64,000 nt of DNA from an uncultured Anaerolineales bacterium. Its GTDB lineage: Bacteria; Chloroflexota; Anaerolineae; Anaerolineales; Villigracilaceae. Below the pieces are notes generated by a model that was not told where the DNA came from, ran no database searches, and was given only the letters and a program-made list of their open reading frames with translations. The position numbers and the translations under genes were made by a program. Location: assembly GCA_903884265.1 (NCBI GenBank), contig CAISEG010000073.1:13957-77956 (forward strand), read 5' to 3'. Positions 2,044 to 62,412 of this stretch are shown one piece after another (position 1 is the first letter of the stretch; each line of letters opens with the position of its first letter).

Positions 2044-3027
2044 TCAAATTGTGATGGGCTTCCCCGTTTTTGCCGACTCGAATAGTGCCAGGATGACGGC
2101 GGTGTTCGCCCGGCTGTCCGACAGGCTGACCCGCGGCGGTTTATTGAGAAGGATTGCATCCGCCATGTCTTCCACTTCAGCAAGGTATGACTCCGTCCCC
2201 TTCACTGCAATCGTCTCGGTTTTACCGTCCTTTGTCAGATAGAGTTTCTCCTTCGGGCCAGGGTTGAACGGCCTGGGGATGATTAACGTTGCCTCGTCTC
2301 CGACAATTTCCATGAAAACATGATAAGGGATCTTGATGCTGCAATCAAACTGGGCAAAGACGTTCTGCGGGAAGCGCAATTGGGCAGTGAACAACTCGTC
2401 CACACCGGTCGGACCGGTGACCTGCCAGCCAAAGACTTCCAGCGGTTCCGCGCCAAGCACGAAGCGGGTATAGCTTAGCGGATAGCAGCCCACGTCCAAC
2501 AGGCCGCCGCCGCCCATCTCCGGTTTCCAGCGATAATCATCCGGGTTGGTCATCATGAAGGTGAATGAACCGCGCACCATTTTAATTTTCCCCAACCTGC
2601 CATCCGCCACAATTTCGCGGGTTTTCAAGGTCTGTGGATGCGAACGGTACATAAACGCTTCGGCAATCAATTTGCCCGAGCTCTCCGCAGCGGCAGACAT
2701 GGCGTCCACTTCTGCCAGGCTCAAGGCCAGGGGCTTCTCGCAGAGTACGTGTTTGCCCGCCTGGATTGCTTTGATGGTCCATTCAGCATGCAGATGGTTC
2801 GGCAGAGGGTTGTAGATGACATCGATTTCAGGATCCGCCAACAGGTCGACATACGAACCGTAAGCGCGTTTGACCTTATGCTTGCGGGCATATTCATCTG
2901 CATTATCCTGTGAGCGGCTGGCAACCGCTAATAATTGATTGCGTTTGGAATTGCGAAGCGGATCGAGCAGGGCTTTGGTGATCCGGGCGGTGCTGAGAAA
3001 TCCCCAGCGGAGGCAGGAAGCGGGCAT
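2044..3027 (-). CDS. Gfo/Idh/MocA family NAD(P)-dependent oxidoreductase
   Basis: Rossmann N-terminus LRWGFLSTARITKALL, and the EKP motif (VLCEKPLALSLAEVD). The ORF-track start (TTG at 3099) is probably too far upstream. The ATG at 3027 (MPASCLRWGF) has AAGGA upstream and removes the overlap with the neighbouring gene. Confidence 0.8.
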   Translation of the reverse strand: MPASCLRWGFLSTARITKALLDPLRNSKRNQLLAVASRSQDNADEYARKHKVKRAYGSYVDLLADPEIDVIYNPLPNHLHAEWTIKAIQAGKHVLCEKPLALSLAEVDAMSAAAESSGKLIAEAFMYRSHPQTLKTREIVADGRLGKIKMVRGSFTFMMTNPDDYRWKPEMGGGGLLDVGCYPLSYTRFVLGAEPLEVFGWQVTGPTGVDELFTAQLRFPQNVFAQFDCSIKIPYHVFMEIVGDEATLIIPRPFNPGPKEKLYLTKDGKTETIAVKGTESYLAEVEDMADAILLNKPPRVSLSDSRANTAVILALFESAKTGKPITI

Positions 3028-3091
3028 GGGTCTATCCTTTCGTGAACTGAGTGTAGAGCAATCCGGTCTGGGAGTCAAGTATAATGCGCCC

Positions 3092-3979
3092 ATGGCCAAG
3101 TCCCTCCGCCACTCCTCGTTTTTTCGACGCCTGCTGAGGCTCTTTGGTTGGTCGCGTTCCAGCAGTGTCCTGCTGGGGGGATTCTTCCTGATTTGCGGGC
3201 TGATCGTCTACGTCTGGTGGCCGCTCGCTGAGGAGGCGCTGGCAACCGTCAACTGGAACGGACCGTGGTGGCTGTACATGGACTGGCTCCTCTTGGGGAT
3301 CTTTGGCTTCATGACCCTGACCATCATCGCCCATGCCAACCTGGGACGGGACGCGCTGATCGTTTTTGTGGGAATGGTTGGTGGTTTGGTGATCGAATCC
3401 TGGGGCACGCAGACCAATCTATGGCATTATTACACCGCCGAGCGCCCACCGTTGTGGATCATCCCTGCCTGGCCGATCGCGAGCCTTTCGATCGACCGGA
3501 TCACGCGGGCCTTGAGATTTTTAACCACAACCCCCAAAAAACGGGGCCAGGAAGTCAGCAAGGAGCGCCAAGGGAAAAACCTGCCCTTCAATTACGACGT
3601 TGAGACTGCTGTGTTTAAATACCTCTACTGGATTATCTTCATCGGTTTCTACGCGCTGATGCTCTATTTCGTGGCCCCAACGTTTCAAAAGTCCTACACA
3701 ATCATGGCCGTGTTGCTGGTGGCACTGCTGACCCTGACACCGACCGACCATCGCTACGCTGTCTTGACTTTTATGGCCGGGACCGGATTAGGCTACTTCT
3801 TGGAGTTATGGGGCACGACGCGCCAGTGCTGGACGTATTACACCTTCCAAACTCCGCCATTCTTCGCAGTGCTGGCGCATGGCATGGCAGCGGTGGCCTT
3901 CTGGCGGGCGGGACGGATGGTCAAGTTGATCTTGGAGAGATTAAAGACCCTGATGCTTATGAGAACAAGAAGCGCCTGA
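3092..3979 (+). CDS. polytopic membrane protein with an internal duplication; family not recognised
   Basis: Multiple hydrophobic helices. The motif E-x-W-G-T-x4-W-x-Y-Y-T-x3-P-P occurs twice: IESWGTQTNLWHYYTAERPP (3395..3451) and LELWGTTRQCWTYYTFQTPP (3803..3859). Start moved to the ATG at 3092 (MAKSLRHSSFF) to avoid overlap with the antisense gene. Confidence 0.6.
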   Translation: MAKSLRHSSFFRRLLRLFGWSRSSSVLLGGFFLICGLIVYVWWPLAEEALATVNWNGPWWLYMDWLLLGIFGFMTLTIIAHANLGRDALIVFVGMVGGLVIESWGTQTNLWHYYTAERPPLWIIPAWPIASLSIDRITRALRFLTTTPKKRGQEVSKERQGKNLPFNYDVETAVFKYLYWIIFIGFYALMLYFVAPTFQKSYTIMAVLLVALLTLTPTDHRYAVLTFMAGTGLGYFLELWGTTRQCWTYYTFQTPPFFAVLAHGMAAVAFWRAGRMVKLILERLKTLMLMRTRSA

Positions 3980-54718: not shown

Positions 54719-56029
54719 TTACTTCGGGCAGACACCGTCTGTTTTGCAGGCAGCCACAAGCGCGGCCTGGAAATCAGCAGTCTTGCTTGTATCGGCCTGG
54801 AACAAGCCAATAGCAGTGCCAATGGAGGTCGCCCAGGCAGGTGCGGCAACTACACCATGCATCAAGCTGCCGACCACGACATTACTGGTCCAATCCTTGG
54901 CAGCATCCTGCGAATACTCGCTGAAAAGAGCCTGGTTGCAGTCTGTACGAGCGCAGATGGAGCCCTTGAGCGGGTTGAAGGCTTCCTGACCGGCCTTAGA
55001 AGCTGCGACGGTCAACCAGTCTGTAGCCGCATCCGGGTGCTTGGCACCCACGGGCAGGACGAAGCTGTCCGAGAGGAAGTTGAAGACGCCATAGGTACCG
55101 GGGGAAACAGCCCAATCGAAATCGGTATGAGGAGTCAGAGCAAGGCCATTGGGGGCGGCGTTGGCAAAATAACCGTAAGCCCAGTCGCCCATAATGTTGA
55201 AGGCGGCATCACCGTCAGAGACCATCTTGGAAGCGGTCTGCCAGTCAGACAGCGTGGAGGCATCGGGGTTGGTATAGGAGAGAGCCTTGGCATAATTGGC
55301 GATGCCCGCGGCAACATCCGTACCGGCCCAGTCGGTGGTCGGGGGGTTGGTCCACAAGCCGTTCCATTTGTCAGCACCGATCGTGCCGATCATGATATTC
55401 TCGAACAGGTGAATGGCGGTCCAAGGGGCGCCGAGGGACAGGCAGATCTTACCAGCAGCTTTGATCTGGTCGCAAACGGCGAAGAAAGCATCCAGAGTCG
55501 CAAAATCGGTCTTGGGGTTGACAGTAACGCCAGCCGCAGCCAGGACCTTGGGGTTGAACCACATCACGTTCGAGCGGTGAATGTTCACCGGCACGCTGTA
55601 AGGATGTCCATCCTTTGAGATGAGCGGGAGGAGAGTGGCGGGGAGGACACTATTCAGACCTGTCGAAGCGAAGAGGGCGTCCAAAGGCTGAACCTGACCA
55701 GCTGCCACATAGTTGGCGATCGTCTCCTGGCCAGCGTGGGCCTGCCATGAATCGGGCGGGTCATTCGCAGCCAGACGGGTAGCCAGAACAGCTTTGGCGT
55801 TCGTGCCAGCGCCACCGGCTACGGCCGCGTTGACGAATGTGATGCTGGGATACTGCTGGTTGAAGATCTTGATCATGGCAGCCAGGCCATCGGCTTCGCC
55901 GGGGCCAACCCACCACGAGAACACTTCTACCTGGGTGCTGGCAGCCGGTTTGGGCGTACCGCAAGCGGAAAGAATCGTTGCCGCGATTACCAGGAAAGCT
56001 ACAAGCGTATACACTTTCTTATTAAACAT
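54719..56029 (-). CDS. extracellular solute-binding lipoprotein (sugar ABC, family 1)
   Basis: Signal peptide plus lipobox ILSACGT. 436 aa with the typical SBP_bac_1 composition. First gene of the operon with the two permeases. Confidence 0.8.
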   Translation of the reverse strand: MFNKKVYTLVAFLVIAATILSACGTPKPAASTQVEVFSWWVGPGEADGLAAMIKIFNQQYPSITFVNAAVAGGAGTNAKAVLATRLAANDPPDSWQAHAGQETIANYVAAGQVQPLDALFASTGLNSVLPATLLPLISKDGHPYSVPVNIHRSNVMWFNPKVLAAAGVTVNPKTDFATLDAFFAVCDQIKAAGKICLSLGAPWTAIHLFENIMIGTIGADKWNGLWTNPPTTDWAGTDVAAGIANYAKALSYTNPDASTLSDWQTASKMVSDGDAAFNIMGDWAYGYFANAAPNGLALTPHTDFDWAVSPGTYGVFNFLSDSFVLPVGAKHPDAATDWLTVAASKAGQEAFNPLKGSICARTDCNQALFSEYSQDAAKDWTSNVVVGSLMHGVVAAPAWATSIGTAIGLFQADTSKTADFQAALVAACKTDGVCPK

Positions 56030-56577
56030 TTATTCTTCTCCTTGTTATATTTTGAGGTGAGAGAAAATTGGCTGAATTAATGTTAACTTGTTGTTGGTAT
56101 CACCTCCTATTCCATACGAGTCAGGTTTGGCAGAAAACCGTTGATGAACAGGGGAACTGCCCCGATAACGCCTGCATCTTTACCAAAATGGAGGAGAAGA
56201 AGGGCGATTCTCCAAGATTTTTACAAGGCAGACAGCCGTGTGGCAGATTATATTGTCTCTATCTTGGGAGCGCTCTCAACCCTACACACATTATATAGAC
56301 ATATCGATTACAAGTCAACTACTAAACTCTGATGGGTTTATCGGTATCAAGAATTAATTTCCTTTATCCGGAATTTTCACAAAGACAAGATGTTTCCTTT
56401 CCACCGGTTCCATAGGGACGGTACACCAGGGAATTAGTGATCCTCTTCTCTAAAAAAGGGGGGTAAAAGGCTGGGAAAGAACCGTTTATTAAACGTGGAT
56501 GCGGGCGCTCTGGGAAAACTTAAACCTGAATATTGATAATCTTAAAGTTTTTCTTTATAAATATCAATATTTACCTA

Positions 56578-56605
56578 TTGACAATTAATATATTTTGTAT
56601 ATAAT
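56578..56605 (+). promoter_or_regulatory. near-consensus promoter of the DUF2089/DUF4097 cluster
   Basis: TTGACA (56578..56583), 16-nt spacer, TATAAT (56600..56605), in an AT-rich gap. Confidence 0.6.
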
Positions 56606-56654
56606 ATCAATTAGATACCTATGGTGCTCTCGCTTTCAAAAAAAAAAGGCTAAT

Positions 56655-56873
56655 ATGAATTCTATCTACAATGCTTATCAAGCCTACGAACGCCGGGTCA
56701 CACGGGGTGAGTTTGTTACCACTCTGAGAACAGCCGGAAAAAGCTCCACTCCCCCTGAGCCCCTGCTCGCCCGTGTAGGTGATCTTCTTATCCACACCGG
56801 CCTGAAACTCAAGCGGCGTTATGCCACCGGTAAGGCCATGGCATGGTCACCGATGACCGGGAGCAAACAATGA
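56655..56873 (+). CDS. 72-aa hypothetical protein, translationally coupled to the DUF2089 gene
   Basis: MNSIYNAYQAYERRVTRGEF... The stop overlaps the next ATG (ATGA at 56870). About 45 nt downstream of the predicted promoter. The SD is weak (AAGG). Confidence 0.4.
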   Translation: MNSIYNAYQAYERRVTRGEFVTTLRTAGKSSTPPEPLLARVGDLLIHTGLKLKRRYATGKAMAWSPMTGSKQ

Positions 56874-57250
56874 AAACAGCCCTGAGTAAATGCCCGGTGT
56901 GTGAAGGTGAACTGACTGTCACCCGCCTGCATTGTGAGACCTGCGACACGGCCATCGAGGGCCGCTTCACTAACGGCGCTTTTGCGGGTCTCACCCCGGA
57001 ACAGTTAGATTTTATTGAAACGTTCGTCCGTTGCGAAGGGAAGATCACCCGTATGGAAGACGAAATGGCGCTTTCCTACCCGACCATTCGCAACCGGCTC
57101 CAGGATGTGATCCGCGCCCTGGGCTACGAACCGGGTAAGGAAGAAGCCAATGACATGTCTGACGAGAAGCGCCGTAGCATTCTCGAAGAACTCGATTCCG
57201 GCAAGATCTCTGCCGAAGAGGCCATGCGCGTCCTGAACGGAGAGGAGTGA
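56870..57250 (+). CDS. DUF2089-type Zn-ribbon/HTH protein with C-terminal SHOCT/LiaX-N-like module
   Basis: CPVCEGELTVTRLHCETCDTAIEGRF (CxxC...CxxC). LTPEQLDFIETFVRCEGKITRMEDEMALSYPTIRNRL (HTH). C-terminus DEKRRSILEELDSGKISAEEAMRVLNGE. Confidence 0.75.
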   Translation: MKTALSKCPVCEGELTVTRLHCETCDTAIEGRFTNGAFAGLTPEQLDFIETFVRCEGKITRMEDEMALSYPTIRNRLQDVIRALGYEPGKEEANDMSDEKRRSILEELDSGKISAEEAMRVLNGEE

Positions 57251-57252
57251 GT

Positions 57253-58485
57253 ATGAAACAACAAACCGTAACCGCCATCCCGACACCCAACATCGTGATC
57301 AAATCCATTCCCGGCGACCTGCGTGTTGCCGGATGGGATCGCTCCGAGATCATGGTCAAGACGGACGGGGATGGGCTGGAAATCTCTGCCGAGACGGACC
57401 CAATCGTTATCTCCTGTAATGAAGACCTGATCCTTTATGTTCCACGCAGCGCTAACGTAAACGTGGAAAAAGTTTCCGGCGACGCCATCCTGCAAGCCTT
57501 GCACGGCCCAATCACACTTGGGCCAGTAGCAGGCGACCTTACCATGAATGACCTCGGCCCGGTCAGCTTGGGGACGATTGCAGGGGACGCCAGCTTGCGG
57601 AATATCGGTGCCTTGAACGCCGAGAGCATCAGCGGCGACCTCACCCTCCGCGGCGGACACGGTATCTGTGCGGTGGACAAGGTGGGTGGAGACGGATCGA
57701 TCCGCGACGTGGATGGCATGCTGACCATCGATAACGTTGGATCAGACCTTTATGTACGGAATGTGCATGGCGCAGTGACCGTCAAAGCCGGGGCGGATGT
57801 AGCTTTCTACGTTTCCCCGGTCCCCGGCCAGATCTACGATGTGACCGCCGGAGACGATTTGATCGTACGCCTCGCCCCGGATGCCAACATCAAACTCCAT
57901 CTGAACGCAGCTTCTCGTGATTCGATCCAGGTTGATTTTCCCGGTGTTGAATTGCCTGAAGATTGCAGCTCCTGCGAAGTGATCCTTGGCCAACAGGCAG
58001 AGGGCATGGCAGAGATGCTCCTGACCGCCAGCGGCGACCTGCTGGTGACCAGCCAGGCCGATCCATGGGAATCAGCTGCCGATTTCGACAGTGGCAACTG
58101 GCACATTCCTTCCATCCCACCCATTCCCCCGATCCCCCCCCTGCCCCCGGATTTCTCCGAGCGCATCAACCGGCGCGTGCAAGCCTCCATGGAGCGGGCC
58201 CAGGTGCATATGGAAGCGGCCAGCCACCGCACCGAGGCCAAGGTCCAGGCCGCCATGCGCCGGGCCGAAATGAAGGCACGCGCGGCCGAAGTTCGTGTCC
58301 GACGCGGGGCTCAGGTCAATGTCAATGTAGGGCGGTGGAATTGGGACCTCTCTCCGCACGGGCCGGTGGAAACAGATGAAGCCGTCTCAGATGACGAACG
58401 CCTGATCATCCTGCGCATGCTGCAGGAAAAGAAAATCAGTCTTGCAGAAGCCGAGAAACTGCTGGCGGCTCTGGAAAGTAAATGA
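57253..58485 (+). CDS. DUF4097 (LiaG/YvlB-like beta-helix) protein with poly-Pro linker, coiled coil and C-terminal SHOCT/LiaX-N-like module
   Basis: Repeated V(S/A)GD(L/A) rungs (VSGDAIL, VAGDLTM, IAGDASL, ISGDLTL, VGGDGSI). IPSIPPIPPIPPLPP. C-terminus DDERLIILRMLQEKKISLAEAEKLLAALESK. Confidence 0.75.
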   Translation: MKQQTVTAIPTPNIVIKSIPGDLRVAGWDRSEIMVKTDGDGLEISAETDPIVISCNEDLILYVPRSANVNVEKVSGDAILQALHGPITLGPVAGDLTMNDLGPVSLGTIAGDASLRNIGALNAESISGDLTLRGGHGICAVDKVGGDGSIRDVDGMLTIDNVGSDLYVRNVHGAVTVKAGADVAFYVSPVPGQIYDVTAGDDLIVRLAPDANIKLHLNAASRDSIQVDFPGVELPEDCSSCEVILGQQAEGMAEMLLTASGDLLVTSQADPWESAADFDSGNWHIPSIPPIPPIPPLPPDFSERINRRVQASMERAQVHMEAASHRTEAKVQAAMRRAEMKARAAEVRVRRGAQVNVNVGRWNWDLSPHGPVETDEAVSDDERLIILRMLQEKKISLAEAEKLLAALESK

Positions 58486-58488
58486 CAT

Positions 58489-58626
58489 TTCCTTCCTATC
58501 CTCGTGCCCCTCTTCCCGAGGGAGGGGCCGGGGACAGGAAAAAACAAGACTCCCTTCCTCGCGCCCCCTCCCCGCCCACTTGGGGGGATGCTTCGTAAAG
58601 GGAAAGGCCGGGGACTGGTAAAAACA
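58489..58626 (+). repeat. imperfect tandem duplication of a CU-rich/GA-rich ~70-80-nt intergenic unit
   Basis: The 21-nt cores GGCCGGGGACAGGAAAAAACA (58526..58546) and GGCCGGGGACTGGTAAAAACA (58606..58626) match at 19/21 positions. Each is preceded by CCTTCCT...GCCCCTC...AGGGA(G/A) segments able to pair. Confidence 0.55.
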
Positions 58627-58636
58627 GGAGAGAGCG

Positions 58637-59305
58637 ATGACTGACCAGGAACGTGAACAAGTACTCAAAATGATTGAAAATGGCACGATCTCGCCGGAAG
58701 ACGGCCTGAAATTGATGCAAACTCTCGACCAGAGCCCGGCCGAAGACGAAGAAATCGTTGGCAAAACGGGAGTGGGTGTCGTACCCACAGAGGCTGCCGA
58801 AAAAGACGGGGTTGAGGAGCAGACCGAAAAGTCCAATTTCGGTAAAGACCCGCGCATCGCCAGCGTCAAAAACGCAGTCCGCCGTCTTTGGCAAATACCC
58901 CTGTGGATCGGCGTAGCCATCACCATCCTGAGCGCGTGGGGAATGTACACCATGGTGCAGGCCTCCAGGCTCAATTTCTGGTTCTACTGTTTGAGCGCCC
59001 CGCTTCTTTTGGGAGTACTAGTGATCGTGGCTGCCATCGGTAGCCGCAAGGCACGCTGGATCTTTGTGGATGTGCATCAGAAACCGGATGAGAAACCGGC
59101 CCATATTTTCCTGGGATTCCCCCTCCCGCTCAAACTTGCCGCATGGTTCCTGCGCACGTTCGGCCATTTCATCCCCGACCTGAAAAAGACGAATGTGGAC
59201 GAGGTGATCGAGATGGTTGAAACCGGTTTCACCGGCGAGGAGCCACTGGTGGTCAATGTGGATGAAGGCGAGGACGGCGAGCGCGTGCAAGTTTACATTG
59301 GATAA
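58637..59305 (+). CDS. membrane protein: N-terminal SHOCT/LiaX-N-like module, two TM helices, C-terminal acidic domain
   Basis: MTDQEREQVLKMIENGTISPEDGLKLMQTLDQS. TM helices PLWIGVAITILSAWGMYTMV and FWFYCLSAPLLLGVLVIVAAI. The C-terminus ...PLVVNVDEGEDGERVQVYIG is paralogous to the next gene. Confidence 0.7.
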   Translation: MTDQEREQVLKMIENGTISPEDGLKLMQTLDQSPAEDEEIVGKTGVGVVPTEAAEKDGVEEQTEKSNFGKDPRIASVKNAVRRLWQIPLWIGVAITILSAWGMYTMVQASRLNFWFYCLSAPLLLGVLVIVAAIGSRKARWIFVDVHQKPDEKPAHIFLGFPLPLKLAAWFLRTFGHFIPDLKKTNVDEVIEMVETGFTGEEPLVVNVDEGEDGERVQVYIG

Positions 59306-59382
59306 GATATTTACTGGGAATCCAACAATAAAGAGATCAAAGATAGTTAGTCAATTGGTTATTATTTAGCAAGGAGGATCAC

Positions 59383-59754
59383 ATGGCTACCACTGAAGAA
59401 CGTATGAAGATCTTGATGATGATTGAGCAGGGTAAAGTAAGCGCAGAAGAGGGAGCCAAGTTACTGGCAGCACTGGCCAGTGCCAACCGTCCCTTGGGCG
59501 GGCTTTCAGCCAGCGGCGCTAAATGGCTGCGCGTGCGTGTCACCGATGGCGCCAGCGGACGCTCGAAAGCCACCGTGCAGATCCCGATCAGTCTGATGGA
59601 AGCTGGGATGAAGATTGGCGCGCATTTCGCTCCCGAAATCGACGGAGTTAACATGGATCAACTTATGGAGGCTCTGCGCTCCGGTATGACCGGTAAGATC
59701 ATCGATGTGACCGATGATGAAGATGGCGAACACGTGGAAATATTCGTTGAATAA
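59383..59754 (+). CDS. soluble paralogue: SHOCT/LiaX-N-like module plus the same C-terminal acidic domain
   Basis: MATTEERMKILMMIEQGKVSAEEGAKLLAALASA. WLRVRVTD...IPISLMEAGMKIG...KIIDVTDDEDGEHVEIFVE aligns with the C-terminus of 58637..59305. AAGGAGG SD. Confidence 0.7.
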   Translation: MATTEERMKILMMIEQGKVSAEEGAKLLAALASANRPLGGLSASGAKWLRVRVTDGASGRSKATVQIPISLMEAGMKIGAHFAPEIDGVNMDQLMEALRSGMTGKIIDVTDDEDGEHVEIFVE

Positions 59755-59933
59755 TAGCCGATTGATAGCAGGCCAATAGGTAGCCGGCCTGCAAATGTGG
59801 TTTACTGCATCCAGTAAAAATCGATGATCTTTCATGTACATAATGGCCCGGAGAAAACGGGACTTAGGTCCAGCTTCTTATGCAGTAGCCTGTCAACTGG
59901 CTGGAATTCAACCAAAGAAAGAAGGAGCATGCC

Positions 59934-60842
59934 ATGTCTGAAACCCTTGAAAAAAAGTTCCCTGTTACATTACCGGCGCGGCTCAACCTGAGCAACATCC
60001 GCGGCTCGGTGGAAATTCGCCCAAGCGATGACGGCTTCATCCAGGTGACGACCACCAAGCAGCCCCATACGGGGGATGAAAAGCGCACCGAGATCGAGAT
60101 TACCCAGGAAGCGGATGGGACTGTCAAGGCGGCTACACGCTTTCCAGACGGCTGGAACTGGCTGTTCGGTTCCCAACCTTGTGTTGTGGATTATAAAGTG
60201 ACAGCACCGCGTCATTGTTCCATTAAGGTAAACGGGGTAAGCAACACAGTCCTTGCTGAAGGATTCGAGGGCGATACCACTGTGAATTCGGTCAGCGGAG
60301 AGATCACAATCCGCGACCTGAAAGGTTCCGTGCGGATTCACACCGTCAGCGGGGACGCCGACGGAGAACGCATCACCGGTTCGTTGGACCTGGATACAGT
60401 ATCAGGAAATATGACATTGCTCGATTCCGTCCTGAGCTCGATCAAAGGCAACACCGTCAGCGGCGACATGCAGATCCGCACTCCGTTGACCGAAGGCCCC
60501 TACTATTTCAAATCGGTATCCGGCCAGGTCCGTCTGACCGTGCCGGCCAACAGCCACTGCACGGCTGAATTGCACAGCGTTAGCGGCGACCTGGTCTCAA
60601 CCTTCCCGATTACCGGGGCTTCCCGTCATCGCGGAAACCAGGCGGTCAACGTTCAAGGCGGTGGGGTAAAAATTTCCCTGCACAGCGTATCAGGTGACCT
60701 GTCGCTGGAATGTGACGAAGAAATTCCAGCTGTGGCAGAACTGGTAAAAACCACCTCCAGTGAAGAGCGCCGGTCAGTGCTGGAACGCGTCGAACGCGGC
60801 GAACTTACTGTTGATGAGGCGCTGGGCCAGCTGCATAAGTAA
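59934..60842 (+). CDS. second DUF4097 beta-helix protein with C-terminal SHOCT/LiaX-N-like module
   Basis: VSGEITI, VSGDADG, VSGNMTL, VSGDMQI, VSGQVRL, VSGDLVS and VSGDLSL rungs. C-terminus SEERRSVLERVERGELTVDEALGQLHK. Confidence 0.75.
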   Translation: MSETLEKKFPVTLPARLNLSNIRGSVEIRPSDDGFIQVTTTKQPHTGDEKRTEIEITQEADGTVKAATRFPDGWNWLFGSQPCVVDYKVTAPRHCSIKVNGVSNTVLAEGFEGDTTVNSVSGEITIRDLKGSVRIHTVSGDADGERITGSLDLDTVSGNMTLLDSVLSSIKGNTVSGDMQIRTPLTEGPYYFKSVSGQVRLTVPANSHCTAELHSVSGDLVSTFPITGASRHRGNQAVNVQGGGVKISLHSVSGDLSLECDEEIPAVAELVKTTSSEERRSVLERVERGELTVDEALGQLHK

Positions 60843-61047
60843 GGGCCCTGACAAAACCTGTCCCTTTATTTAGAACCAGGTTCTGCTAATAATTTTAGAG
60901 TGGGATCCTTGAAGGTGGGACTGGTCCCCGAGCTGAGTTTGAGCCCGAAGATTCCCAAAACATACAGCCCGGGATTGGGTGCTGGCAAACCCACCAATCC
61001 CGGTTATTCTATGCAGAATTCCTGAATTCACCCCTTTGGATAAGAAG

Positions 61048-62412
61048 ATGGAAAATTCCTCGCCCAAACCCCTCAAACGCCCCGCCGGTATGACTGGTTT
61101 CAGCATCGTCTTCGTGGGGCAGCTTATTTCCGTCGTCGCCACACAGATGACTAGCTTTGCCCTGACCCTGTGGATCTATGGGAAAACGAGCAGTGCCACG
61201 GCTTTGGGACTGGCACAGGTTTTCTATATCGTGCCGTTCCTGATCATCTCCCCCATCGCCGGAGCAATGGTGGACCGTTATAACCGTAAACTCATGATGA
61301 TGATCAGCGATATCGGAGCAGGACTGGCGACCACGATCCTCCTGGTCATTTCTGCGCTGGGAATACTTCAACTCTGGTACCTATACGCAGTCATGACGAT
61401 CATGGGACTGGTCGGCGCATTCCAATGGCCGGCCTATTCAGCCGCGATCACCACCATGGTTTCGAAAGAGCAGCTCGGCCGGGCGAATGGGATGATGTCA
61501 CTTATCGACGCTGGTCCGGGTGTGATCGCTCCGCTCTTGGCCGGAGCACTGATTGGCTTCATCAAGCTGACCGGGATCCTGGTGATAGATGTGGTGACTT
61601 ACGGTATTGCGATCCTGTCACTTGCAATCGTCTTTGTCCCACAGCCAGCGCACACCGAAGAGGGTGAAAAGGCAAAAAGTAACATCTGGAAGGAATCCAT
61701 CTTTGGTTTCAAATACATTTTCGCCCGTCGTGGACTTCTTGGATTGCTATGCATTTTCCTGGTTGGAAACCTTTTCTCCGGCATCGCCGGTACACTCTTT
61801 GCCCCGGTCATACTGGCCCGCACCAGCAACAACAGTGTCATGATGGGCACTGTCCAATCCACAGCGGCCATCGCCGCAGTGGCAGGCGGATTGATTATGA
61901 GCGTCTGGGGGGGTTTCAAACGCCGCATCACCGGGGTGGTATTGGGCTGGGGGCTTTCGTCCCTATTTGGTATGATGCTGTTCGGTTTCGGGCGGAGCTT
62001 GGTCGTCTGGATCCCCACTGTCATGTTCATGACCGTCTTCGGCGCATTGATCAACGGTTCCAGCCAAGCCATCTGGCAGTCCAAGGTTGAACCCGACCTG
62101 CAGGGACGCGTCTTTGCTTCCCGCCGGATGATCGCCTGGATCACGCAACCGATCACTCCCATCATCGCCGGGACACTGGCCGATTATGTTTTGGAACCGG
62201 CTATGAAAACGCAGACCAGCCTCTCCAATATCTTCGGTCCATACTTCGGCACCGGGCCCGGAGCTGGGATGGGCTTGTTGATTACCCTGTGCGGTATCGG
62301 TTGCGTGCTTACCGCCATCGTCGGATACTCCTTGCCGGTCATCCGCAATGTGGAGGACTCCGTGCCCGACCACGACCGGCTGAATAAAGCCGAAGCTGTT
62401 CCAGCTGATTGA
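61048..62412 (+). CDS. MFS transporter (MFS_3/EntS-macrolide-efflux-like)
   Basis: 12 TM helices. Loop 2-3 motif GAMVDRYNRKLMM. Start taken as the ATG at 61048 (MENSSPKPL). Confidence 0.8.
   Translation: MENSSPKPLKRPAGMTGFSIVFVGQLISVVATQMTSFALTLWIYGKTSSATALGLAQVFYIVPFLIISPIAGAMVDRYNRKLMMMISDIGAGLATTILLVISALGILQLWYLYAVMTIMGLVGAFQWPAYSAAITTMVSKEQLGRANGMMSLIDAGPGVIAPLLAGALIGFIKLTGILVIDVVTYGIAILSLAIVFVPQPAHTEEGEKAKSNIWKESIFGFKYIFARRGLLGLLCIFLVGNLFSGIAGTLFAPVILARTSNNSVMMGTVQSTAAIAAVAGGLIMSVWGGFKRRITGVVLGWGLSSLFGMMLFGFGRSLVVWIPTVMFMTVFGALINGSSQAIWQSKVEPDLQGRVFASRRMIAWITQPITPIIAGTLADYVLEPAMKTQTSLSNIFGPYFGTGPGAGMGLLITLCGIGCVLTAIVGYSLPVIRNVEDSVPDHDRLNKAEAVPAD

Follow-up and report, generated by a model that had tools for sequence, protein, structure and literature searches.

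The closest described relatives of the gene cluster treated here come from a comparative genomic survey by Ravi, Anantharaman, Aravind and Gennaro (2024, mSystems, PMC11237479), who split DUF2089 into a zinc ribbon, a helix-turn-helix (HTH) domain and a SHOCT-like module, listed the gene pair ‘DUF2089 -> SHOCT-like+X’ and Toastrack+SHOCT-like architectures, and proposed a lia-operon-like function for such contexts. Here we analyse a cluster of this kind at positions 56578-60842 of a 64,000-nucleotide (nt) stretch of DNA, hereafter the window, from a genome assembled from a metagenome and belonging to Anaerolineales (Chloroflexota; 1.66 Mb in 194 contigs, 71% complete), in which five consecutive proteins carry a short SHOCT-like hairpin at one end. 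The cluster has six open reading frames (ORFs), g0-g5, all on the forward strand. We write S for the SHOCT-like hairpin, X for an unclassified beta/alpha domain, ZH for the zinc ribbon plus HTH and TR for Toastrack.

Much of what that survey describes is met again here: a three-part regulator, a neighbour that begins with a SHOCT-like module and continues into an unnamed globular domain, and Toastracks that bear the module, with a proposed role there of coupling a membrane-proximal signal to transcription. By architecture, the pair ‘DUF2089 -> SHOCT-like+X’ corresponds to g1 with g3 and g4, and the two types are adjacent in many Chloroflexota loci; X is likened to the Bacillus ‘X’ of the survey by the description of its architecture alone. 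An earlier note on this DNA, made from its letters, knew of no description of such a five-fold arrangement; the novelty that this implies is not supported, as PF22746 models exactly this module and the survey describes the architectures. Whereas the four-gene context of the survey comprises a sigma factor, a zf-HC2 anti-sigma receptor and membrane-anchored Toastracks, both Toastracks are soluble here, the role of membrane anchor falls to an S-X paralogue with two transmembrane (TM) helices, and there are four to five S per operon. No sigma factor or zf-HC2 ORF lies between the sugar ATP-binding cassette (ABC) genes upstream and the major facilitator superfamily (MFS) transporter, methyltransferase and TldD genes downstream.

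The Toastrack (DUF4097) beta-helix is common to the cluster proteins and to YvlB (Bacillus subtilis yvlABCD), LiaG and Enterococcus LiaX. YvlB has N-terminal SHOCT-like bihelical modules (PMC11237479), and two-hybrid assays show it to contact numerous proteins (PMC9239133). S is C-terminal on the Toastracks of this cluster; in the Chloroflexota loci L130, L133 and L134, the Toastrack partner carries S at its N terminus, the layout reported for YvlB. The resemblance to LiaX drawn in the earlier note did not hold up against NCBIfam profiles, whose matches are confined to the Toastrack part of g5 and fall far under cut-off: LiaX (NF038025) aligns over profile positions 339-449 only, with 20.4 bits against a cut-off of 350, and LiaG (NF049997) scores 42.5 bits against 285. 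For g3 and g4, NCBIfam gave no LiaX or LiaG match.

Classical SHOCT (Eberhardt et al. 2013, PMC3581485) is likewise a short bihelical terminal module on many unrelated domains; the module here belongs to a separate Pfam family, PF22746, and the Pfam matches of g1-g5 listed at E ≤ 0.1 do not include the classical SHOCT model. Membrane-sequestered transcription factors and partner-switching systems, such as anti-sigma/sigma pairs or PspA holding PspF, follow the same logic as the one we consider below, that is, reversible capture on membrane-associated partners, but they have no sequence relationship to the cluster, where capture would use a small hairpin common to all components. We know of no system for which capture through a hairpin shared by every component has been shown.

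Our central observation is that one homologous module is repeated along the cluster. In Pfam hmmscan searches, for which we list matches at E ≤ 0.1 and take 27 bits as the PF22746 cut-off, PF22746 (SHOCT-like_DUF2089-C) matched at a terminus of each of g1-g5, with E values from 5.3e-9 to 8.7e-4. The match covers residues 108-132 of the 135-amino-acid (aa) frame of g1 (19.3 bits, E 8.7e-4), 384-411 of g2 (E 2.3e-5), 5-32 of g3 (30.6 bits, E 2.3e-7), 5-32 of g4 (35.8 bits, E 5.3e-9) and 277-297 of g5 (20.3 bits, E 4.1e-4). In nucleotides, the matches of g1 and g5 correspond to ~57164-57238 and ~60762-60824. The five copies placed at these termini by the earlier note are thus all found by the profile, and its reading frames and coordinates agree with ours. 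While only g3 and g4 exceed the gathering score in hmmscan, g2 also does so in a six-frame search of the whole assembly. That search returned six PF22746 matches genome-wide, five of them inside this 4-kb cluster, from which we conclude that the five-fold repeat is real and far beyond chance.

Short amphipathic helices can look alike, and with a module of only about 28 residues and two of the five matches under the Pfam cut-off it might be argued that the five segments are unrelated and similar by coincidence. We regard this as refuted for practical purposes, both by the clustering of the profile matches within 4 kb and by conservation, since orthologues across the phylum carry S at the same termini and 88 of 89 g4 homologues match PF22746. 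The earlier note had itself named unrelated low-complexity helices as an outcome that would refute its view; the five segments are instead a single homologous module.

The other identities proposed in that note, namely a DUF2089 zinc-ribbon/HTH protein, two DUF4097 proteins, a soluble paralogue of the membrane protein and a sixth gene, stand as well. The regulator g1, whose orthologues are 126 aa long, consists of a four-cysteine zinc ribbon (PF22747, 52.6 bits against a cut-off of 27.6, E 4.8e-14; cysteines reading CPVC...CETC), an HTH (PF09862, 71.5 bits against 33.4, E 4.4e-20), an acidic linker and a C-terminal S (nt ~57158-57244). Among papers that mention DUF2089, none reports a functional study of it. 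In several Chloroflexota lineages (L020-L024, L036-L040, L029, L030 and L043), the DUF2089 proteins have other residues in place of the zinc-ribbon cysteines (for example, LITRDPVSGGELIVTRLECPESG) but retain the HTH and the C-terminal hairpin, and there the ribbon appears to be dispensable or metal-free.

The Toastrack identity is clear for g5, which matches PF13349 with 49.9 bits (E 3.5e-13) over profile positions 12-246 of 247. Its paralogue g2 (BLASTP E 4e-11) scores 18.1 bits, under the cut-off of 22.9, and also aligns to a Toastrack profile that we built from related loci. In g2 the beta-helix (~residues 1-270) is followed by a proline-rich stretch IPSIPPIPPIPPLPP, an arginine-rich helical segment and the C-terminal S (nt ~58396-58479). 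We saw neither a hydrophobic N terminus nor a TM segment in the sequences of g2 and g5, and the soluble parts of the cassette are all without a signal peptide. The arginine-rich segment of g2 (residues 300-362, net charge +6), which comes after the IPSIPPIPPIPPLPP proline run (region 288-362), is the sole basic patch among otherwise strongly acidic proteins and is kept only within the family (seven loci).

The membrane protein g3 and the soluble g4 are paralogous at both ends, in the N-terminal module and in the C-terminal domain (E 1e-11, the value for X, and 8e-5). In g3, an acidic linker of ~55 aa separates S from the first of two TM helices (~residues 86-106 and 113-134, nt ~58892-59038, from hydropathy windows), and X follows at nt ~59051-59302; in g4, S and X are joined by a flexible linker. 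With a short loop between the helices of g3 and basic flanks on their outer sides (KNAVRR before the first, SRKAR after the second), the positive-inside rule predicts that the hairpin and X are both cytoplasmic, and if so, all parts of the cassette can meet on the cytoplasmic side of the membrane.

We could not assign X to any known family. None of the 89 members of the g4 alignment has a Pfam family in this region, a profile search of the PDB with g4 found no relative of X, and hhalign indicated no relationship of X to Toastrack or DUF2089. PDB profile searches with g5 and DUF2089 found no real relatives either; a match to a de novo TIM barrel is a repeat artefact. AlphaFold2 modelled g4 poorly from the single sequence (predicted local distance difference test score, pLDDT, of 62), whereas the 89-sequence alignment gave a mean pLDDT of 82.7 and a predicted template modelling score (pTM) of 0.50. 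In the latter model, helices 4-16 and 21-34 form a hairpin (pLDDT 86-97) that precedes a disordered linker, and X adopts a beta-beta-alpha-alpha-alpha-beta-beta fold. Leu11, Leu27 and Leu28 of g4 are conserved hydrophobic positions of the hairpin. Foldseek against the PDB with the whole two-domain model, which lowers the power of the search, returned nothing under E 0.03, with TM-scores ≤ 0.31. The family itself is large, with 6016 homologues in a collection of 5.8 billion proteins (1588 clusters at 50% identity). Some g4 homologues are natural fusions, either 2TM-X-S-X in a single chain or with tandem S before X (P0128, P0123, P0129), and these arrangements suggest that X lies near X and S near S, which likewise favours docking.

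Table 1. Positions of the cluster genes, the control elements and the associated genes (window coordinates unless a contig is named)
Feature	Position	Strand	Remarks
Inverted repeat, candidate operator	56529..56571	.	19-nt arms, 84% complementary; directly 5' of -35
Sigma-70-type promoter TTGACA-16-TATAAT	56578..56605	+	12/12 consensus positions
g0, small ORF, 72 aa	56655..56873	+	Stop overlaps DUF2089 ATG (ATGA)
g1, DUF2089 protein, 126 aa (135 aa from alternative start 56843)	56870..57250	+	
g2, soluble Toastrack-S protein, 412 aa	57247..58485	+	GTG start overlaps g1 stop by 4 nt
g3, membrane protein, 222 aa	58637..59305	+	N-terminal S at nt 58649-58732
g4, soluble S-X paralogue of g3, 123 aa	59383..59754	+	S nt 59395-59478, X nt ~59518-59751
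g5, soluble Toastrack/DUF4097-S protein, 302 aa	59934..60842	+	C-terminal S nt ~60762-60836
MFS_1/MFS_3-type transporter	60979..62412	+	Pfam MFS_1 E 3.9e-32; directly 3' of cluster
Second DUF2089-S gene (137 aa) with 425-aa partner	Own genome, contig C95 (L124), 2066-3772	-	

To place the cluster in an evolutionary context, we scanned our own ZH, TR, X and S profiles over the six-frame ORFs of related loci, in three sets: 43 loci from many Chloroflexota families, 80 loci from Anaerolineales/Anaerolineae found with a narrow alignment search (which returned Anaerolineae only), and 30 DUF2089 loci selected by HTH score alone. The genes of the cluster do occur together in many genomes. Across the 43 loci, the triad of ZH-S, S-X and TR-S recurs with S on all three proteins, in the order ZH-S, S-X, TR-S or ZH-S, TR-S, S-X. 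Nearly all of the 80 Anaerolineales loci that are long enough to show it have the order ZH-S > TR-S > S-2TM-X > S-X, and only ~18 of the 80 have a second Toastrack after S-X, at the position of g5. All 30 of the regulators selected by their HTH end in S, and the gene that follows is always a Toastrack or S-X (30/30), with S visible on at least 25.

From this comparison, the five-fold layout is an old cassette of three modules that was expanded in a lineage-specific way, by duplication of S-X, with one copy gaining the 2-TM hairpin, and by duplication of the Toastrack. Of 301 Chloroflexota genomes, 131 (about 44%) contain the S-X (g4) family, including all 20 sampled from the family of the window, and about two thirds of the Chloroflexota genomes sampled have DUF2089. 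The cassette also occurs in cultured Anaerolineae, with records labelled Anaerolinea thermophila among the Anaerolineae loci. For its spread beyond the phylum we rely on the literature and on 14 control genomes, four of which (Thermus, Deinococcus, Bacteroides and Thermotoga) also have DUF2089. The genes around the cassette are syntenic housekeeping genes, and the cassette is vertically conserved.

A compact and very widely distributed operon headed by a small autoregulated HTH protein is also what one would expect of a toxin–antitoxin or anti-phage defence module. We consider this identity very improbable, as vertical conservation among syntenic housekeeping neighbours, in 20 of 20 family genomes sampled, speaks against it, as does the lack of any enzyme or toxin domain in the cluster proteins (Pfam and NCBIfam). 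The sole PADLOC match, g1 to LmuB at 13 bits and E 0.004, is not a meaningful one.

We then compared the modules themselves, using sets of S from related loci and a tree of 113 modules. Modules from the same protein type in different genomes share 45% identity, against 36% for modules within one operon. On the tree, the four type labels change 13 times, compared to 51-58 in shuffles, and the division into regulator and partner changes only three times, compared to 25-30. Such few changes imply two long-standing flavours of S, a DUF2089 type and a partner type, the former borne by the DUF2089 protein and the latter, as judged from these groupings, by S-X, S-2TM-X and Toastrack-S. S has a mean net charge of -2.1, and in 90% of modules the net charge does not exceed zero; the regulator type is the least acidic (mean -1.3). 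An acidic regulator hairpin that pairs with basic partner hairpins was considered and rejected, because the mean charge is negative for every type and closest to zero for the regulator. S is also kept on g3-type proteins although these are already integral membrane proteins. Acidity and retention on membrane proteins argue against a simple lipid anchor and favour docking.

These properties bear directly on the main rival to docking, in which the hairpins are independent localisation tags that bring each protein to the membrane's inner face or to a shared third-party receptor without binding one another. Such a role is what Ravi et al. 2024 (PMC11237479) predict, the one test published for classical SHOCT (PMC3581485) saw no oligomerisation, and the position of S at the extreme N or C terminus on flexible linkers is tag-like. 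An acidic hairpin is, however, unfavourable toward anionic bacterial lipids, the 2-TM paralogue needs no anchor and yet retains S, and the phylum-wide distinction between regulator and partner types is not required of a generic tag that all proteins share. We therefore hold independent tags to be unlikely, if still to be reckoned with.

Less probable again is a role of S as a ligand- or nucleic-acid-binding unit, similar to a helix-hairpin-helix, that senses a common molecule, or as an autoinhibitory lid. Nucleic-acid binding was raised as a possibility by Eberhardt et al. (PMC3581485), but an acidic hairpin would be a poor nucleic-acid binder. For a lid, the g4 model with its two confident domains and low pTM is compatible with a transient intramolecular contact; the domains to which S is attached (HTH, Toastrack, X and, in a second pair described below, 29-aa repeats) are unrelated, though, and a docking surface common to all of them is unlikely.

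The cluster has its own control region (Table 1). The consensus promoter is not peculiar to this genome, as the orthologous operons of L001, L002 and L004-L008 are likewise preceded by TTGACA-N16-18-TATAAT. The core of the adjoining inverted repeat reads TATTGATA-N21-TATCAATA (TATTGAWA-N21-TWTCAATA), and the pattern TATTGAWA-N15-25-TWTCAATA has a single occurrence in the 1.66-Mb assembly, at 56529-56571. Half-site-like sequences overlap the -35 and -10 hexamers. Among orthologous promoter regions, all with consensus promoters, ATATTGA is present in eight of eight, and ATTGA[AT]/[AT]TCAAT occurs 24 times compared to 3.6 ± 1.9 in shuffles. The palindrome and the recurrence of ATATTGA are compatible, tentatively, with autoregulation by the HTH protein.

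By its layout the cluster reads as a single operon, with overlapping stop and start codons that link g0 to g1 and g1 to g2. Taken together, we give roughly even chances to the reading that it is a locally expanded DUF2089 / SHOCT-like+X / Toastrack operon in which docking of S on S regulates the DUF2089 protein; module-mediated assembly of a DNA-binding protein with a membrane anchor, as suggested in the earlier note, is the most economical reading of the locus. The DUF2089 protein would bind the palindrome beside its own promoter and autoregulate the operon, and perhaps also control the MFS transporter that follows. The C-terminal S of the DUF2089 protein, attached through a flexible acidic linker, would dock onto a partner-type S, one of which g3 would display at the cytoplasmic face of the membrane. 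The other hairpins would be displayed by g4 and the two Toastracks, for which X-X pairing and contacts between beta-sheets may provide the link to g3. Changes at the membrane, or close to it, would then alter the assembly, such that the regulator is either held off the DNA or free to bind it. The system operates without PspA.

A more specific form of the docking proposal, which we put forward tentatively and consider rather doubtful, is a two-flavour S docking code, independent of PspA and without kinase or sigma factor, in which the regulator is a zinc-ribbon/HTH repressor that is reversibly parked on a membrane-anchored platform of S-2TM-X, S-X and Toastrack. Pairs of hairpins would form four-helix bundles, and X-X pairing would tie the soluble proteins to the anchored one.

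Several points weigh against S-S docking in this operon. The modules of g1 and g5 are under the PF22746 gathering score, even if they sit where orthologues in dozens of genomes carry S. The operator call comes from the recurrence of a motif in AT-rich DNA, and its half-site resembles the -35 hexamer, which makes the assignment tentative. Gaps of 151, 77, 179 and 136 nt within the cluster could harbour internal promoters. From the literature, the experiments of Eberhardt et al. 2013 (PMC3581485) were unsupportive of oligomerisation by classical SHOCT, although that result concerns a different family and homo-oligomers, and Ravi et al. 2024 (PMC11237479) prefer a reading in which SHOCT-like modules are anchored to the inner leaflet of the membrane.

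Compared with the Lia/Psp network, the cluster is without LiaFSR, PspC and PspA. We found no PspA/LiaH (PF04012) in the assembly of the window, which is 71% complete, and a PF04012 match in only one of 26 genomes of the family (G301-G318 and others), 24 of which are at least 90% complete. Consequently, the cassette does not act as accessory to a Psp system in these organisms, and a Psp/Lia-type envelope response, such as the release on envelope stress suggested as one possibility in the earlier note, cannot be assumed for it. Given the wide distribution of PspA, the absence of PspA/IM30 from 25 of the 26 family genomes is unusual in itself.

The genome contains a second pair that includes a DUF2089-S gene (Table 1), on the contig that holds the sixth PF22746 match of the assembly. 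Its 425-aa partner has an N-terminal S (31 bits) followed by a wholly different domain, and that S is kept nonetheless is expected if the hairpin links the partner to the regulator. This domain is made up of about ten 29-aa repeats in tandem (87-nt period); the C-H-D-H-G motif (CHDHG) conserved in them may bind metal. The DNA upstream of the pair is AT-rich and contains AATAACCAATA direct repeats as well as a TTGACA hexamer.

As for the remaining parts of the locus, the first gene, g0, has a conserved segment LLxRxGxxLIxxGxKLK and no Pfam match in hmmscan. Its homologues lie 5' of DUF2089 in L001, L002, L005 and L007, and in ~21 of the 80 Anaerolineales loci, roughly a quarter. The gap between g2 and g3 (58486-58636) holds two copies of a unit that is C/T-rich and then G/A-rich; it folds no better than shuffled sequence (z -0.96), and an Rfam search of 56000-61200 gave zero matches. 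The flanking genes are sugar ABC genes upstream and, downstream, the MFS transporter, a methyltransferase and TldD/PmbA genes. MFS homologues adjoin the cassette in 12 of 44 loci, from several Chloroflexota families, and in L001-L003, which makes the transporter a recurrent, optional neighbour and a possible regulated cargo. Close relatives have an extra MFS gene between the g3 and g4 types (L001 7144-7962; L002 2985-4274), and as only a 77-nt gap (59306-59382) separates g3 from g4 here, it has been lost in this genome. In six loci from different families (L013, L015, L018, L026, L032 and L035), a GNAT-type acetyltransferase-like ORF (~340 aa) lies beside the cassette.

The kind of cassette that we describe has been catalogued by comparative genomics, and as a richer local version of it the cluster adds little that is new in kind. 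What is new are the regulator and partner types of S, the retention of an acidic S on an integral-membrane paralogue, the absence from the family of PspA, on which the cassette is shown not to depend, and a promoter palindrome that is unique in the genome. As a test case it is rich: there are four hairpins of the partner type, one paralogue is anchored and the other soluble, and a candidate operator accompanies a clean promoter. If the hairpin is a docking module, it would provide a very compact wiring of a transcription factor to membrane-associated partners and would explain why SHOCT-like modules are found on so many unrelated domains. Were the docking code true, no natural example of it would be more elaborate than the four- and five-module operons of Anaerolineales, which would offer a way to dissect it.

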